A DNA stretch of 24,000 bases. Source: an uncultured archaeon. Its GTDB lineage: Archaea; Asgardarchaeota; Lokiarchaeia; Sigyniarchaeales; SOKP01. The stretch spans positions 7,894-31,893 of the forward strand of contig CAZWEM010000018.1 in NCBI GenBank assembly GCA_964632315.1. The letters are read 5' to 3'. The translations under genes and the position numbers were made by a program. This document shows, piece by piece, positions 3,984-16,090 of this stretch (positions are counted from its first letter, which is position 1; each line of letters starts with the position of its first letter). The notes under the pieces were generated by a model that did no database searches, was not told the origin of the DNA, and worked only from the letters and a program-made list of their open reading frames with translations.

Positions 3984-4535
3984 TTATATCTTTTCTCCTT
4001 GCTTTTCAAGGATCTCAAACACCAAAGTTTTAAACGCATTATCCACATTCTCTCCCAGTTTTGCACTGGTTTCAATGAATTTACTTGCTTTAATCTTCTC
4101 AGCCAAACTTTTCCCATCATTATCTGAGATCATTCTTTGGTCCTTTAAATCACATTTATTCCCAATTAAAAGGTATGTTCCCTCTTTCTTAACAAATTTT
4201 TTAAAGTCATTGAGCCACTTAGTTTCAATGGTATTGAATGTGTTAGATCTCGTAATATCATATACTAATAGAGCTCCTACGCATCCTTGATAATATAAAC
4301 TCCTCACGACATTATATTTTTCTTGTCCTGCTAAATCCCATACAATTAATCTAACTTTGGCATTTGAATTTTCTAATATTACATCTTTTCGGATGATATT
4401 TGCTCCTAGAGTTGGTTTATAATCTTCTTCAAAAGCATTTTCAACAAATTGGTTTATCAGAGACGTTTTTCCTACAGCACTATCTCCTAATATTACGATT
4501 TTAAAAACGTATTCCCTTGTTTCTTCTGTCGACAT
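3984..4535 (-). CDS. Ras-superfamily small GTPase, Rab-like
   Basis: 183 aa. G1 GDSAVGKTS, G3 WDLAGQE, G4 GNKCD, G5 ETSAK, and a Rab-like YYQGCVGALLVYDIT segment. There is no C-terminal Cys prenylation motif (ends ...EKQGEKI). Confidence 0.9.
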   Translation of the reverse strand: MSTEETREYVFKIVILGDSAVGKTSLINQFVENAFEEDYKPTLGANIIRKDVILENSNAKVRLIVWDLAGQEKYNVVRSLYYQGCVGALLVYDITRSNTFNTIETKWLNDFKKFVKKEGTYLLIGNKCDLKDQRMISDNDGKSLAEKIKASKFIETSAKLGENVDNAFKTLVFEILEKQGEKI

Positions 4536-10090: not shown

Positions 10091-10618
10091 ATGACGGAAC
10101 CCGATTATGTAATCAAGATTTGTTTGCTTGGGGAGGCAAATGTTGGAAAAACATCACTTGTTTATCGCTTTATTGAAAATAAATTCAGAGATAATTATAA
10201 AAGTACACTTGGAGTTAATCTCCTTAAAAAAGACTTGAATATTGAAGATTACGGCGGAGTAGCTGCCACAATCTGGGATCTAGGTGGTCAAGAAAGTTTT
10301 AGATCCCTCCGAAAACTCTACTTAGAGGGAGCGAATGGTGCTCTAGTTATCTTTGATTGGACTCAAAAAGAAAGCTTCCTTAAATTAGAAAGTTGGATAC
10401 AAGATTTTAGATTAGAGAGAGAAAATGAACCAATTTTATTGATCGGAAATAAAGATGATTTAAAAGATAAGGAAAAGGTATCTAAAGATGAAGCATTAGA
10501 ATTAGCACGTCGTTATAAGCTAAAATTTCTTTCTACCTCAGCTAAAACAGGTTCTAATGTAGAAGAAGCATTTAATACTGTTACTAAGACGATTTTAAAA
10601 TCCCAATTAGCTAAATAG
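10091..10618 (+). CDS. Ras-superfamily small GTPase, Rab-like
   Basis: 175 aa. G1 GEANVGKTS, G3 WDLGGQE, G4 GNKDD, G5 STSAK. There is no C-terminal Cys motif (ends ...KSQLAK). Confidence 0.9.
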   Translation: MTEPDYVIKICLLGEANVGKTSLVYRFIENKFRDNYKSTLGVNLLKKDLNIEDYGGVAATIWDLGGQESFRSLRKLYLEGANGALVIFDWTQKESFLKLESWIQDFRLERENEPILLIGNKDDLKDKEKVSKDEALELARRYKLKFLSTSAKTGSNVEEAFNTVTKTILKSQLAK

Positions 10619-10639: not shown

Positions 10640-10816
10640 AATATATTATCGAAAATGTTGCTGAAATATTTTTTAAAATTAACAATTATTTATAAAGCAT
10701 TTATAAATGATCATATATTTAAATAAAATTATATATAAAATATGACTTCGTCATTAAAGATAATTTTACAATTATTTAACTATATACAAATCATATTTGG
10801 AACTTATTGATTTATC

Positions 10817-11209
10817 ATGCCTGAAGAAGAAGATGATCATGAAGAAGAGGAGGAGGAGGAAGAAGAAGAACTCTCCTCTGAAGAAGGTTTAGATTATAAA
10901 ATTGAAAATGTTGTTGCAACCGTTACTGTTGAAATCACTGAAAAAATTGATTTAAATCAAATTGCAAGAAAGCATGCTGAAGTAGAATATAATCCAGAGA
11001 GATTTCCTGGATTAGTCATGCGAATTGAGAAACCCAGAGCAACTATTCTCATATTTTCCACCGGAAAAATGGTTGTTACTGGATTACGTAAAGCGTCTGA
11101 GGCTGAAAGAGTGGTTGATAAAGTTGTTAAAAATATTCGAAAAGCAGGAATAAAATTATCTAATCCCGAGATCACCATTCAAAACATAGAAAACTTAATA
11201 TATCATTAA
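10817..11209 (+). CDS. tbp: TATA-box-binding protein, acidic N-terminal tail plus first TBP repeat; ends at an in-frame TAA inside the inter-repeat junction
   Basis: IENVVATVTVE...YNPERFPGLVMRIEKPRATILIFSTGKMVVTG matches the TBP repeat consensus. The ORF stops at 11207-11209, exactly where repeat 2 should begin. Confidence 0.85.
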   Translation: MPEEEDDHEEEEEEEEEELSSEEGLDYKIENVVATVTVEITEKIDLNQIARKHAEVEYNPERFPGLVMRIEKPRATILIFSTGKMVVTGLRKASEAERVVDKVVKNIRKAGIKLSNPEITIQNIENLIYH

Positions 11210-11218
11210 GTTTATGGA
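11189..11218 (+). other. 30-nt insertion carrying a stop codon and a perfect hairpin, interrupting tbp
   Basis: The sequence is gaaaacttaatatatcattaagtttatgga. A 9-bp inverted repeat aaacttaat (11191-11199) / attaagttt (11205-11213) flanks a 5-nt loop, atatc. The TAA at 11207-11209 lies in the 3' arm. Deleting these 30 nt gives the junction ...[19 protein letters not shown]..., the same length as the canonical QN-x-x-x-SGD junction. Confidence 0.6.
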
Positions 11219-11257
11219 TTTGCGAGTGGCGATCTTCATACGAACATCGATCTAAAT

Positions 11258-11503
11258 ATGGCTGCAATTGTTATGGAGTATGCCATGTATGAACCAGAAG
11301 TGTTTCCCGGGTTAATTTATAGAATGCAAGAACCTAAGACTGTATTTTTAATATTTTCAACTGGTAGAATAGTATGCACCGGAGCCAAGCAAAAAGAAAT
11401 TGTAAGAGATGCCGTAAAAAAACTAAACCAACAAGTACGTGATCTAGGAGTTGCAAAAAAGGAGCTTATAGATAGCGATTACCAAGATATCACGTTTATT
11501 TAA
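11258..11503 (+). CDS. tbp: TATA-box-binding protein, second TBP repeat
   Basis: It is in the same reading frame as 10817-11209. [34 protein letters not shown] matches the repeat-2 consensus. Translation immediately after the TAA gives [16 protein letters not shown], the missing first strand of repeat 2. TBP homology therefore starts near 11219, while the first ATG is at 11258. Confidence 0.8.
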
Positions 11504-12056
11504 ATTTTTATTTTCTATTTTTATATTTTAGTTGATTATGAAAAGCAGTGCTAATCATAAATTCGATAATCAATTTTCGGTAAGCCAATATTTCTAACCC
11601 CTTTCTCATTTGGTGCCATCTTATTGTAAACATCTACAGGACTTTCATAGGGAATTTTACTCCTTAAACCTTCTCGATTTGCCAATAATCGTTCTTTAAA
11701 ATCTTCTAACCATTTTTTCCGGATTTGAGCTAGTTCTTTGGATTGAAATTGATGAGCTTCATATTTATCAAAATTAGCATATTCTATAATTTTAAGTTTT
11801 AAAATTCTTAGGTATACATATCCCCCAAGCCATTAATTCATCATTCGCAAGCGGCTTAAATCCTAATCTTTTCCTTTTTTCTTTTCAAAAAAATCTAAAT
11901 TCTAATCCAATCTCTTCCTTTCAGAGAGAGATCTTTAAGTTATGGGAGGAGTCCCCCAAATTGAGGACATTCTTCTCCAGAATTTATTTAAGAATGTATA
12001 ACATGATAATAAATGATATTAAATTCAGACAAAAATCAATAAAGTGATTGCATTTA

Positions 12057-14294
12057 ATGACAAAAACGATTTTGATGAATAATAAATTAATGAAGGTCAC
12101 AGTCATTATATTATCTTTTATTATACTAAGTATTTTAACCTCCAATATCAGTTTAAACAAAAATGAAGAAAGAAACAATAGCGAACTATTTTCAGAGCCT
12201 TTAGCATCAAGTTCAAAATCGTTTATTTCTATCTGGGATACAACCAAATCTGGTGTTAGTAGTAGCAATCAAGTTCATTTACCTTTATTATCGAGTGGAA
12301 AATATAATTTTACGGTTAATTGGGGAGATGGAAATAATGACACAATTACGATCTGGAATCAAGGTTCTGTAACCCATACATATGCTACCCAGGGTATTTA
12401 TACCATAAAAATATTAGGAAAGATTATTGGTTGGCAATTTAATTACCAAGGAGATAGGTTGAAAATACTTGAAATTCAGCAATTTGGATGTCTACAATTA
12501 GGAAATTTGGGAAGTTATTTTTATGGATGCCGTAATTTAGCACTCACCGCTACTGATAGTTTGAATTTGAATGGAACCACAAATTTAAGTTTAATGTTCG
12601 GAAACTGCCATAATCTTGGCAATAGTGGTGATTTTAATAAGTGGAATACGTCAGGAGTCACAGATATGTTCCAAATGTTTTATAACGCTCAAACCTTCAA
12701 TTGTTCCATAGATAACTGGGATGTCTCAAGTGTAACGACAATGGCAAGAATGTTTGTTGATGCTGACTCATTTAACCAACCCATTGGCAACTGGGTTGTT
12801 TCGAGTGTGATAGATATGAATTGCATGTTTTGCGGTGCTTATTCTTTCAATCAACCCATTGGCAACTGGGATGTCTCAAATGTGAGAGATATGTTTGAAA
12901 TGTTTGGTGATACAATCTCTTTTAATCAACCCTTAAGTAAATGGGATGTATCGAATGTGACAGAAATGCAGGGTATGTTCGATCAAGCATTATCATTCAA
13001 TCAACCCATTGGTGACTGGGATGTTTCTAGTGTGACATCAATGGCTTTGATGTTTGGATGGGCTCTTTCATTCAATCAACCCATTGGCAATTGGGATGTA
13101 TCTAGTGTAACAACAATGGCTTCAATGTTTGCTGGAGCATCCTCATTTAATCAACCGATTGACGATTGGAATGTCTCAAATGTAATAGATATGAGCAGTA
13201 TGTTTGATGATGCTGGTTCATTTAATCAATCTCTTGGATCGTGGAATGTTTCGAAAGTAATAACGATGAATAGAATGTTCTATGGAGCCTCCTCATTCAA
13301 CCAACCCATTGACTTATGGGATGTTTCGAGTGTAACGGATATGTTTGAAATGTTTTCTAGTGCCTCCTCATTCGACCAATCTATTGGTGATTGGGATGTC
13401 TCGAGCGTGGGAGATATGAGAAACATGTTTTATGGAATAGCTTTATCAACACCAAATTATGATAATCTTCTACTGGGTTGGTCGCAGTTATTGCTAAAAA
13501 ATGAAGTAATTTTTGATGGTGGTGATTCCAAATATAGTAATGCTGCCAAAACCGCGCGGCAATACATTATAACTACTTTTGATTGGACGATCATTGATGG
13601 TGGTTTAATATCACCGGGAGAATTCACCTTATTTTCAAATGCAGGCACTCCCGATATTGATGGACGTTTTAATCTTACCTGGACACCATCTTCAAGAGCA
13701 AGTAATTATTCAGTGTATCAAAATTCGAGTTACATTACTCAAGTTAATGAAAACTTATCTCTCTTGACTGCTGAAATTACAAATTTAACCCACATGCTCA
13801 CTGGCTATAATGAAGGAACTTACTACTTTATCATTGTAGCAAATAATGATTTTGATTACACTCTTTCTAATTGTCTCACTGTTGTAGTGAGATTACCACC
13901 AGGAGAATTCGAATTATCATCAGATTCAGGCACTCCCGACCCCGACGGATGTTTCAATCTTACCTGGACACCATCTTCAAGAGCAAATAATTATTCCGTT
14001 TACCTACATTCAAGTTATATTACCGAGCTAAATGCTAGTGTTTCTCTCTTAGGATCTGGAATTACTGATCTGAATTTAAAATTGATTGGTTACGTTGATG
14101 GTGCTTATTATTTTATGATTGTTGCCTATAATAACTATGGTATAAATCATTCAAACTGTATTAATGTGATTGTAATGAAAACTCCAACACAACAACAACC
14201 TCTCCCCGCAATTCAAGGATACGATCTCTACTTGCTTATAGGAATAGCGAGCGTGATAACGACTTTAATGCTTCGAAAACGAGTCAAATCCTAA
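12057..14294 (+). CDS. Secreted/anchored surface protein with BspA-type (DUF285) leucine-rich repeats, two FN3-like modules and a C-terminal membrane anchor
   Basis: Alternative starts are TTG 12048, ATG 12057 and ATG 12090 ([16 protein letters not shown] signal/anchor). The N-terminal VNWGDG...HTY...GIYTIKILG module is typical of DUF285 proteins. About twelve [20 protein letters not shown] repeats follow. Two [35 protein letters not shown] modules come next. The C-terminus is a hydrophobic helix, [16 protein letters not shown], followed by the basic tail RKRVKS. Confidence 0.85.
12631..13430 (+). repeat. Tandem 75-nt (25-codon) coding repeats, about 11-12 copies
   Basis: The motif caacccattggcaactggg recurs at 12777 and 12852, exactly 75 nt apart. 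At the protein level, consecutive 25-aa units end in MF ([77 protein letters not shown]). Confidence 0.85.
13611..14180 (+). repeat. Two tandem 285-nt (95-codon) module duplicates
   Basis: The PGEF codons at 13614 and 13899 are 285 nt apart. Long identical stretches are shared, e.g. cttacctggacaccatcttcaagagcaa in both copies. Confidence 0.8.
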
Positions 14295-14315: not shown

Positions 14316-14388
14316 GAATATTAAGTATAAATAGGATTATATCCTAGCTTTATATTAAAGATTTTGACAAAAATCGAGCTATGAAATT

Positions 14389-14604
14389 ATGAAGCATAGA
14401 TATAATTTAAAAATCATCAATTCAAGAATTAAATCAGTATTAATCGTGAGTGTTTTATTAATATCCATTATAGTTCATATAAAAATTGGATTTTCCTTGA
14501 GTCCTGATACACCTACGAATCCGTATCCTCAAGATGGCGCAACTGGTTATGGTGGGATTTTTTTACTCCCATACTTAGAAGTTGACGTCTCTGATGGAGA
14601 TTAG
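14389..14604 (+). CDS. Short signal-anchor ORF, possibly a truncated surface-protein stub
   Basis: 71 aa. A hydrophobic N-terminus (SVLIVSVLLISIIV) is followed by SPDTPTNPYPQDGATG, which resembles the start of an Ig/FN3-type extracellular domain, but the ORF then terminates. No downstream continuation is seen in any frame. Confidence 0.3.
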   Translation: MKHRYNLKIINSRIKSVLIVSVLLISIIVHIKIGFSLSPDTPTNPYPQDGATGYGGIFLLPYLEVDVSDGD

Positions 14605-15550: not shown

Positions 15551-16090
15551 TTATTGATCTTTATATTTTTCATACAAATTCATAATTATTGCTTGAAATG
15601 CTTTATAAACCCCGTTTCCTGTTTTTGCTGAAGTTTTATAGTATCCAAGAAAATTTCTTTCATTAACAAGTTGAATTGCTTTATCATCATCTAAATTATC
15701 TAAATCTACTAGATCGATCTTGTTTCCAAATAGCATTATTGGAATATTTCCACAGTATTTTTTAATATCCTCATGCCATTCACTTACATCCTCAAAACTT
15801 TCCTCTTCATCTGGGTCATGGGAAAAAACAATTATTGCTGCCTTACTCCCCTTATAAAACGTAGGACGCATGAAACTGAACTGTTCTTGACCTGCAATAT
15901 CCCAGAAAAAAAGCTTTACGGCATTTCCCGCAATTTTTTCATCATATTTCGAAAATTGGGCTCCTAACGTCTTTATATATTCCTTTTGGAAACTGCCCTT
16001 CGTATATTTTCGTATCAATGATGTTTTGCCAACGCCCCCATTGCCTATTACAGTAATCTTGAATACAAAATCTTTCCTTTCCTCATTCAT
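15551..16090 (-). CDS. Ras-superfamily small GTPase, Rab-like
   Basis: 179 aa. G1 GNGGVGKTS, G3 WDIAGQE, G4 GNKID, G5 KTSAK. There is no C-terminal Cys motif (ends ...YEKYKDQ). Confidence 0.9.
   Translation of the reverse strand: MNEERKDFVFKITVIGNGGVGKTSLIRKYTKGSFQKEYIKTLGAQFSKYDEKIAGNAVKLFFWDIAGQEQFSFMRPTFYKGSKAAIIVFSHDPDEEESFEDVSEWHEDIKKYCGNIPIMLFGNKIDLVDLDNLDDDKAIQLVNERNFLGYYKTSAKTGNGVYKAFQAIIMNLYEKYKDQ

Follow-up and report, generated by a model that had tools for sequence, protein, structure and literature searches.

The region analysed here is a stretch of 24,000 nt, called the window below, from contig CAZWEM010000018.1 of the assembly GCA_964632315.1 (positions 7,894-31,893, forward strand; Lokiarchaeia; Sigyniarchaeales; SOKP01). 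The TBP gene of this window lies at 10817-11503 on the plus strand and is interrupted by a 30-nt element with an in-frame stop codon, which is probably a mini-intron of the bulge-helix-bulge (BHB) type. The GC content of the window is 31.7%, and its genes are ordinary chromosomal ones, encoding an arginyl-tRNA synthetase, a deoxyhypusine synthase, an arginase-family enzyme, aminotransferases, and three Ras-family small GTPases. The nearest database relatives of the TBP belong to metagenome-assembled genomes labelled Lokiarchaeota or Promethearchaeota. The interrupted gene occupies the syntenic position of the single conserved TBP gene, in the order Ras GTPase, TBP, V4R, thioredoxin, and Ras GTPase.

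As a first-pass annotation of the same DNA had described, the gene consists of two open reading frames (ORFs), 10817-11209 and 11258-11503, which share one reading frame and have a single TAA codon (11207-11209) between them. The product of the former has 130 residues and ends with ...ENLIYH, and that of the latter has 81 residues; gene callers annotate interrupted alleles as two TBP-domain ORFs. Without the 30-nt element, the encoded protein matches Pfam PF00352 with an E-value of 4.8e-59 in two stretches, which cover both repeats. It consists of 218 residues, the same length as the closest intact orthologue (P0001), with which it shares 99% identity. Exon 1 matches the orthologues identically up to ...ITIQNI, and the repeat 2 encoded by exon 2 is 100% identical to that of P0001. 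The parts of the gene are as follows.

10817-11189, plus strand: TBP exon 1 (by translation and the Pfam TBP match), comprising the acidic N-terminal tail, repeat 1, and the sequence through Ile124 and the first base (G) of the Val125 codon.
11190-11219, plus strand: the 30-nt element, a proposed BHB-type mini-intron in phase 1, AAAACUUAAUAUAUCAUUAAGUUUAUGGAU; absent from intact alleles, and its removal alone restores QNIVASGD.
11191-11213, plus strand: hairpin h', with a perfect 9-bp stem (11191-11199 and 11205-11213) and the loop AUAUC (11200-11204); the in-frame TAA (11207-11209) is in the 3' arm.
11220-11503, plus strand: TBP exon 2 (by translation), comprising the UU of Val125, repeat 2, and the stop codon TAA (11501-11503).

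To define the boundaries of the element, all in-frame deletions near the junction with lengths of 27, 30, or 33 nt were enumerated. Removal of 11190-11219 was the only one of these deletions that gave ITIQNIVASGDL (...QNIVASGD...). This junction sequence is invariant in all 14 aligned orthologues (87-99% protein identity), so that the spliced product matches each of them exactly across the junction. The 85 intact alleles that were extracted likewise have nothing inserted at the junction. Lying in codon phase 1, the element splits the Val codon into G and UU; in all six interrupted variants the split Val is rebuilt, as G+UU, G+UC, or G+UA. The insertion had previously been placed at 11189-11218, as ten extra codons at the junction of the repeats, and its precise removal had been expected to restore a two-repeat TBP. 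The length of 30 nt and the restoration, with both repeats found by Pfam, are retained here, whereas the true boundaries lie 1 nt rightward. The boundaries 11189-11218 were rejected, as the invariant V would then be replaced by F; the junction peptide QNIFASGDL derived from them should be corrected to QNIVASGDL.

The first-pass annotation had also suggested an alignment with orthologues, and had considered that comparable linkers without a stop codon in orthologues, combined with a lack of spliced RNA, would point to simple pseudogenisation. Intact orthologues carry no linker at the junction. The insertion is missing from the 14 aligned orthologues, from the closest intact alleles, and from all 80 of the listed species-representative Lokiarchaeial genome loci. 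The 9-bp inverted repeat with its loop atatc and the stop codon in its 3' arm was found as previously described. A perfect 9-bp hairpin by itself is not above chance in the window (two found, 1.7 expected from shuffles). The other one, at 10688-10708, is about 110 nt upstream of the TBP start codon and is a palindrome of two TATA-like motifs (ATTTATAAA gca TTTATAAAT).

The same interruption was found on many other contigs. A second contig encoding the 130-residue exon-1 product, L001, carries an identical element, despite 25 single-nucleotide polymorphisms over 8 kb and a 161-nt indel relative to the window. A fully degenerate DNA pattern, which only an interrupted TBP could match, yielded two further interrupted contigs from JGI metagenomes, L008 and L009. 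By exact look-up of the half-gene products, clusters at 90% identity were obtained with several variants on dozens of contigs from JGI, ENA, NCBI, and Logan; the two 81-residue exon-2 products are each present on 14 contigs. A 61-residue protein query ending in the intron-encoded tail retrieved only four unrelated TBP fragments. The interrupted alleles fall into two TBP clades, about 77% identical in DNA, in which both halves are open and in register. The element occurs in five versions, always at the identical position.

Window and L092: one type.
L097: loop AUUUC.
L090: AAUGCUUAGUAUAUCACUAAGCUUGUGGAU.
L008 and L101: ...AAUUC...GUGGUU.
L106: ...AGUUC...GUGGAA.

Three contigs of this family are irregular. 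L009 is the same as L008 over 6.3 kb except for a 14-nt deletion (TGCAACAATCCTCA) beside a short CCTC repeat, which is located at about 5,900 and frameshifts TBP repeat 1; this is either an assembly error or a truly inactivated variant. In L096, the sequence after the element (...UUGC) jumps straight to AAUGUACGAGCC, and about 20 codons of repeat 2 are deleted. L109 is a chimera of two haplotypes, in which an intact-type junction comes first and the region is then repeated with the element. It was considered as a spliced or precisely intron-less copy of the interrupted haplotype, and this was rejected because its intact junction carries intact-type flanks and the contig is chimeric. Short contigs of the TBP locus are prone to mis-assembly where both haplotypes coexist.

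Selection on the two exons was assessed from the ratio of synonymous to nonsynonymous codon differences over a 193-codon core. The ratio was 53:0 between the window and its intact sister L002, 54:4 between L008 (interrupted) and L089 (intact), and 95:17 between the window and L008, which represent the two interrupted clades. Intact control pairs gave 57:1 and 90:13. The exons of interrupted alleles are under purifying selection like those of intact alleles. Relaxed selection and accumulating lesions, the marks of a pseudogene, were not found, with L009 and L096 as the exceptions. In addition, 21 extra codon variants were counted across the six interrupted variants in the 13 codons that separate the element from the first ATG downstream (11258); 21 are synonymous and none is nonsynonymous. 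Since this stretch varies only synonymously, it must be translated in frame with exon 1 in the interrupted lineages, which neither re-initiation at 11258 nor simple termination at the TAA could bring about.

The element itself shows the reverse of the exons: when read in frame, it has seven nonsynonymous and two synonymous codon variants. Variation is greatest in the loop and otherwise affects two stem pairs and the nucleotides at the end of the element. In the hairpin stem, 98% of cells are paired across the six variants. In L090, the pairs 11193-11211 and 11198-11206 are both changed from A-U to G-C, and positions 11192 and 11212 form a single U.U mismatch. Its location within the stem accounts for the conservation of the TAA. 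For the whole structure, 86.4% of cells are paired in the six distinct variants, compared with 36-41% when the 3' partners are slid. Three pairs are changed on both sides, and the observed covariation was reached by 4 of 500 column shuffles; because six variants are a small sample, these counts are supportive rather than decisive. The fold of 11165-11240 (76 nt) has a free energy of -21.0 kcal/mol, against -9.4 +/- 2.6 kcal/mol for shuffled sequences (z = -4.55, 0 of 200). The element evolves as a structured RNA and not as a coding sequence.

Other identities were sought for the hairpin. Neither Rfam at the gathering threshold over the window nor a permissive scan of 11050-11350 gave anything meaningful, the best hit having an E-value of 0.38, far below the gathering score. 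An intrinsic terminator was rejected by eye, since no T-run of more than three follows the hairpin, which is AU-rich. The first-pass annotation had proposed a genome search for other copies of the aaacttaat-N5-attaagttt hairpin. The window, 0.70 Mb of Lokiarchaeial DNA, and viral contigs were searched for the hairpin and the 30-mer, and the TBP copies were the only ones found. The features of a dispersed palindromic repeat or miniature inverted-repeat transposable element were not observed: in the searched DNA the copies are confined to a single locus, and there is no direct duplication at the ends.

The RNA structure extends into both exons, where two strands of coding sequence on either side of the element form an exon-exon helix.

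11168-11180, plus strand: 5' strand of the exon-exon helix (GAGAUCACCAUUC), codons Glu-Ile-Thr-Ile-Gln; pairs with 11224-11236 at 12 of 13 positions.
11224-11236, plus strand: 3' strand of the exon-exon helix (GAGUGGCGAUCUU), codons Ala-Ser-Gly-Asp-Leu, including a Ser codon switch from TCN to AGU.

The helix is made of synonymous codon choices. Synonymous differences from intact alleles encoding the same peptide are clustered at the junction, with 12 per 30 nt there and about 2 elsewhere, and they include the switch of the Ser codon family from TCA or TCU to AGU. Of the 13 positions, 12 are paired in the interrupted allele, compared with 7-8 in the intact L002 and L004. The energy of the exon-exon duplex, -17.0 kcal/mol, is better than that of all 3000 of 3000 synonymous recodings (mean -7.2, sd 2.4, best -15.8 kcal/mol), which encode the same peptide with codons drawn from the codon usage of the window. 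The duplexes of the six interrupted variants have values of -17.0, -17.0, -16.9, -17.0, -14.7, and -11.7 kcal/mol. Five of these six exceed every one of 88 intact alleles (77 distinct), for which the duplex energy is -6.95 +/- 2.47 kcal/mol and the best value is -12.0 kcal/mol. Furthermore, a compensatory change between G11170-C11234 and A11170-U11234 distinguishes the two deep clades.

Among the intact alleles, L089, the nearest relative of L008 in the genome collection, has the most interrupted-like junction flanks. It carries AACATAG and TTGCAAGTGGCGAT on the two sides of the junction, the AGT Ser codon, and 10 of the 13 exon-helix pairs. L089 could represent a recent precise loss of the element, or the background type in which the element arose.

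The sequences around the two junctions were compared with the cutting rule of EndA, the archaeal tRNA endonuclease.

11184-11190, plus strand: 5' splice-site context, in which the helix strand ACAU (11184-11187) is followed by the 3-nt bulge AGA (11188-11190); required cut after G11189.
11214-11220, plus strand: 3' splice-site context, in which the helix strand AUGG (11214-11217) is followed by AUU (11218-11220); required cut after U11219.

EndA cuts between the second and third nucleotides of each 3-nt bulge of the BHB motif; in the enzyme-RNA structure, the attacking group is the 2'-OH of the second bulge nucleotide, and the third is the leaving nucleotide (PMC12397907). The cuts fixed by the orthologous protein fall 2 nt to the 3' side of each strand of the ACAU/AUGG helix, after the second bulge nucleotide, which is a geometric fit only. 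This agreement of the protein-fixed cuts with the EndA rule is a non-trivial coincidence of two independent lines of evidence. The central helix is formed by the pairs U11187-A11214, A11186-U11215, and C11185-G11216, with A11184 opposite G11217. Across the variants, the C-G and A-U pairs are invariant, the U-A pair alternates with U-G, and the A.G opposition is never replaced by a standard pair. The AGA and CAU of the 5' site are invariant, as is the arrangement in which the AGA bulge lies between the ACAU/AUGG helix and the 9-bp hairpin.

These features suggest the following pathway. The 9-bp hairpin, the ACAU/AUGG helix, and the exon-exon helix would present the two junctions as 3-nt bulges on opposite strands. 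EndA, which in Asgard archaea is of the broad-specificity (alpha-beta)2 type, would cut after G11189 and U11219. The RtcB ligase would then join the exons, with AACAUAG connected to UUGCGAGUGG, so that Val is rebuilt from G and UU and the normal two-repeat TBP of 218 residues is produced. On an unspliced mRNA, translation would end at the TAA after repeat 1. Cleavage and ligation as such, and the enzymes responsible, are what we infer. Asgard archaea are reported to encode an (alpha-beta)2 EndA with the L1/crenarchaeal-specific loop, a type that accepts relaxed motifs (PMC5829648).

Several points weigh against splicing of this kind. The motif is relaxed, as the central helix has only three Watson-Crick pairs besides the conserved A.G. 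The 3' site is in an asymmetric internal loop, closed by A11183-U11221 alone in the window, or by nothing in L008 and L106, before the distal helix. The motif resembles the relaxed HBh' and bulge-helix-loop forms used by broad-specificity enzymes rather than the strict hBHBh' form. In addition, the hairpin can slip by one position, with A11188-U11213 replacing A11191-U11213. Both the minimum free energy fold and RNAalifold prefer the slipped register, which has four Watson-Crick pairs (CAUA/UAUG) and in which the EndA rule would lead to excision of 28 nt and a frameshift. Because this register competes, any action of EndA here would require that the productive register is adopted for some of the time. 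The intron interpretation is internally weakest at two points, the relaxed 3' site and the slipped register. In L106, which retains TCG as its Ser codon, the exon helix consists of its outer part alone, the inner half being absent, and the duplex reaches -11.7 kcal/mol. L009 and L096 carry extra disabling deletions, as decay would produce, which could be assembly errors. No EndA or RtcB gene was found among the genes of the window or the related loci examined, and tRNA scans of the window and 60 related loci gave no tRNA gene, hence no native tRNA introns for comparison.

Judged from the sequence comparisons, the best explanation of 11190-11219 is a BHB-type mini-intron in the TBP pre-mRNA, which is probably spliced by EndA and RtcB. 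Of four alternatives in the first-pass annotation, an RNA-level mini-intron is thus the one supported, with its boundaries shifted by 1 nt.

Another explanation is that a small palindromic, stop-bearing insertion inactivated a TBP copy, that the cell lives on another TBP, and that the null allele persists and moves by recombination. The in-frame TAA is what such an allele would show. The further frameshifting or large deletions in L009 and L096, the coexistence of intact alleles in the same samples, and the minority status of the interrupted state (0 of 80 listed genome loci) are also in its favour. Nevertheless, it is hard to reconcile with long persistence under purifying selection. The exons evolve at 95:17, compared with 90:13 in an intact pair; in two clades that share about 77% identity the interruption has been retained, and both halves are open and in register; and the codon variants after the stop are 21 synonymous to 0 nonsynonymous. 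The hairpin and the exon helix are kept by compensatory and synonymous changes, and the gene holds the syntenic locus of the conserved TBP. On the grounds of locus, selection, and persistence, the pseudogenised paralogue proposed earlier is disfavoured, and a null allele seems unlikely. A further proposal is that repeat 1 (130 residues) and repeat 2 (81 residues, from the ATG at 11258) are made separately and assemble into a TBP-like saddle. In favour of two half proteins, both halves are conserved and are annotated as TBP-domain ORFs. In such a model, however, the 13 codons upstream of ATG 11258 would be untranslated, and yet they are strictly conserved at the amino-acid level. The 81-residue product would have no first strand of repeat 2, and the hairpin covariation and the exon helix would be left without a reason. 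This earlier alternative is disfavoured by the 21 synonymous-only variants, and its likelihood is considered to be extremely low.

Translational recoding without RNA processing would leave the mRNA intact, the ribosomes either bypassing the 30 nt, as in T4 gene 60, or reading through the TAA. The hairpin beside a stop codon resembles the gene 60 arrangement, the length of 30 nt keeps the exons in one frame as read-through needs, and L106 has AUA both before the element and before GCA. In the other five of the six variants, the take-off and landing codons are unmatched (AUA against UUU or UUC). Recoding could not produce the invariant Val; it would give Phe, or ten extra residues in the first strand of repeat 2. 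The ratio of 7 nonsynonymous to 2 synonymous variants in the element shows no peptide constraint, and the three synonymous forms of the rebuilt Val and the exon-exon helix would be unexplained. Recoding is regarded as very unlikely. As for an assembly or sequencing artefact, some contigs of the family are visibly mis-assembled, L109 being chimeric, and L009 and L096 carry odd deletions. However, the 30-nt element is found at one position on many contigs from independent projects and assemblers in JGI, ENA, NCBI, and Logan, in five sequence variants with compensatory changes, and it is identical in L001 despite the 25 differences over 8 kb. This last of the earlier alternatives is excluded for all practical purposes.

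The distribution of the element among closely related alleles was also examined. Interrupted and intact alleles share lineage-specific acidic N-terminal tails (P0128/P0004, P0147/P0149, and P0126/P0006). Identities in the rest of the gene and in a patch of +/-36 nt at the junction are as follows.

Window (interrupted) and L002 (intact): rest of the gene 93.0%, patch 72%.
L092 (interrupted) and L004 (intact): rest of the gene 93.0%, patch 76%.
Window and L092 (both interrupted): rest of the gene 88.6%, patch 95.8%.

Four-taxon site patterns over 2 kb of the locus gave 235 sites supporting the species grouping, 15 sites grouping the interrupted alleles, and none with the third pattern. Within the gene, the species-pattern sites are at or beyond -62 and +89 from the junction, and the sites grouping the interrupted alleles lie between -23 and +83. 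These patterns define the tract given below.

11167-11302 (minimal) or 11129-11307 (maximal), plus strand: interrupted haplotype tract, from four-taxon site patterns; it contains the element with about 23-61 nt of the preceding exon and 83-88 nt of the following one.

Inside the tract, the identity is 93% between interrupted alleles, 90% between intact alleles, and 82% between interrupted and intact alleles. The element and its adapted flanks form a single haplotype, which homologous recombination has separated from the remainder of the locus. The element coexists with intron-less alleles in several close lineages and is reshuffled by short-tract homologous recombination. Both haplotypes co-occur in single samples (3300076654 and ERZ23486244), as well as in the chimeric contig L109. 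An old polymorphism may have been kept in several lineages, or the interrupted tract may have been transferred later. In the comparison of the two deep clades (77%), only three flank sites, 11173, 11179, and 11185, are common to the interrupted alleles as against their intact sisters, and all three are pair-forming. A simple recent transfer from an L008-like donor was rejected, because the flanks of the window are 78% identical to those of L008, compared with 77% for the rest of the gene; that only these three structure-forming flank sites are common across the deep clades weakens it further.

A more far-reaching version of the intron interpretation may be put forward as a speculation, although we consider it rather unlikely. 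The element would be an evolutionarily mobile mini-intron of the BHB type, passed by co-conversion of adapted flanks between Lokiarchaeial lineages that occur together, and splicing would in addition act as a gate on TBP synthesis. If this were true, the unspliced mRNA would give a one-repeat half-TBP and slipped cleavage a dead product, so that the activity of EndA and RtcB would set the level of full-length TBP. The closest prokaryotic relatives of eukaryotes would then have an archaeal form of control comparable to that of HAC1/XBP1.

Some other features of the gene and its surroundings were observed. The N-terminal tail of TBP (10820-10890 and the corresponding part of the orthologues) is hypervariable, strongly acidic with E and D runs, and of variable length. 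It differs between otherwise near-identical alleles and is usable as a lineage marker. In other archaeal TBPs, acidic tails are usually C-terminal. One TBP of 134 residues, P0142, encoded on an ENA contig of 10.5 kb, has a single repeat: repeat 2 (MAAIVMEY...) follows immediately on the start of repeat 1 (...EITEKIDLN), and the fusion point is the IDLN motif common to both repeats. It looks like the result of unequal recombination between the repeats, or of assembly collapse.

The three small GTPase genes (Ras/Rab-like) are located within 12 kb, at 3984-4535 (minus strand), 10091-10618 (plus strand), and 15551-16090 (minus strand). Two of them flank the TBP locus, in a synteny that relatives conserve; a set of small GTPase genes like this one is typical of Asgard genomes. 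Between TBP and V4R, both the window and L001 have a gene for a DUF285 repeat protein of 748 residues (12048-14294, plus strand; Pfam E-value 2.7e-150). It is absent from the corresponding position in L002, L004, and L092, and in L097 its place is taken by a fragment gene for TPP_enzyme_C. The spacer that follows TBP seems to be a site of variable insertions. A stretch of 161 nt just downstream of the DUF285 gene (14341-14501) is present in the window and missing from L001, which is otherwise 99.7% identical.

Two archaeal protein-coding genes spliced via the tRNA endonuclease pathway, the crenarchaeal cbf5 and HVO_1309 of Haloferax, were listed in a 2023 review, and more were expected. The literature searched contained no description of a BHB intron in TBP or in any protein-coding gene of Asgard archaea. 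If the interpretation is correct, the TBP element would be the third archaeal protein-gene intron of the EndA type. It would also be the first one in Asgard archaea, the archaeal lineage closest to eukaryotes, and its host gene encodes an essential general transcription factor. Its exact boundaries, the selection on both exons, the RNA-type evolution, the structural fit to the rule, and the recombinant tract are established here. The presence/absence polymorphism among lineages sharing samples, together with the mapped tract, constitutes a natural experiment on intron gain, loss, and accommodation, the last of which took the form of synonymous sites recoded into the exon-exon helix. There is also a problem of annotation: with two-fragment gene calls, genome surveys would score such a TBP as broken or split.

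The likeness to known systems is of several degrees. Bypassing in phage T4 gene 60 likewise concerns a hairpin and a stop codon within a stretch of non-coding sequence that interrupts an ORF, whereas in TBP matched take-off and landing codons are absent from five of six variants and hopping could not rebuild the split Val. In HAC1/XBP1, a short intron in a transcription-factor mRNA is cut by Ire1 at stem-loops and sealed by tRNA ligase or RtcB, and the unspliced mRNA gives a truncated or different protein. That system is eukaryotic and stress-regulated and has another endonuclease, Ire1, with another recognition motif; the comparison is an analogy only, not one of membership. The BHB introns of archaeal tRNA and rRNA share the cut geometry predicted for the element, and 30 nt is within the range of 11-175 nt of tRNA introns. 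Among the known relaxed forms (HBh', hBH, and BHL), the 5' site is close to HBh' and the 3' site to bulge-helix-loop. The TBP element differs from these introns in that it lies in an ORF, its central helix has three standard pairs and an A.G, and the outer helix by the 3' site is nearly absent, a distal 13-bp exon helix being present instead.

Like the TBP transcript, the HVO_1309 mRNA of Haloferax volcanii is an archaeal mRNA, which is cleaved by EndA and was seen spliced in RNA-seq (2023 review); its host is euryarchaeal with an alpha2-type tRNA-splicing endonuclease (TSEN), and it is likened here by description only. The closest known system is the cbf5 mRNA intron, and the mechanism proposed for TBP is identical. 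The crenarchaeal cbf5 mRNA is spliced by the (alpha-beta)2 class of EndA through a relaxed BHB (PMC2738675, PMC10485636). In Desulfurococcales and Sulfolobales, as proposed here, a short intron with relaxed BHB-like borders is in a protein-coding gene, the hosts have an (alpha-beta)2 EndA with the specific loop, as is reported for Asgard archaea, and the distribution is patchy, like that of the TBP element, with gain or loss among close relatives (PMC2738675, PMC10485636). In contrast, the present gene is TBP, the lineage is Lokiarchaeia of the Asgard archaea, and splicing is deduced from DNA. The TBP element also has a long exon-exon helix of synonymous codons, a presence/absence polymorphism, and a recombinant haplotype tract. 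In comparison with cbf5, the exon-exon helix built in synonymous sites and the presence/absence haplotype structure are the two features worth attention.

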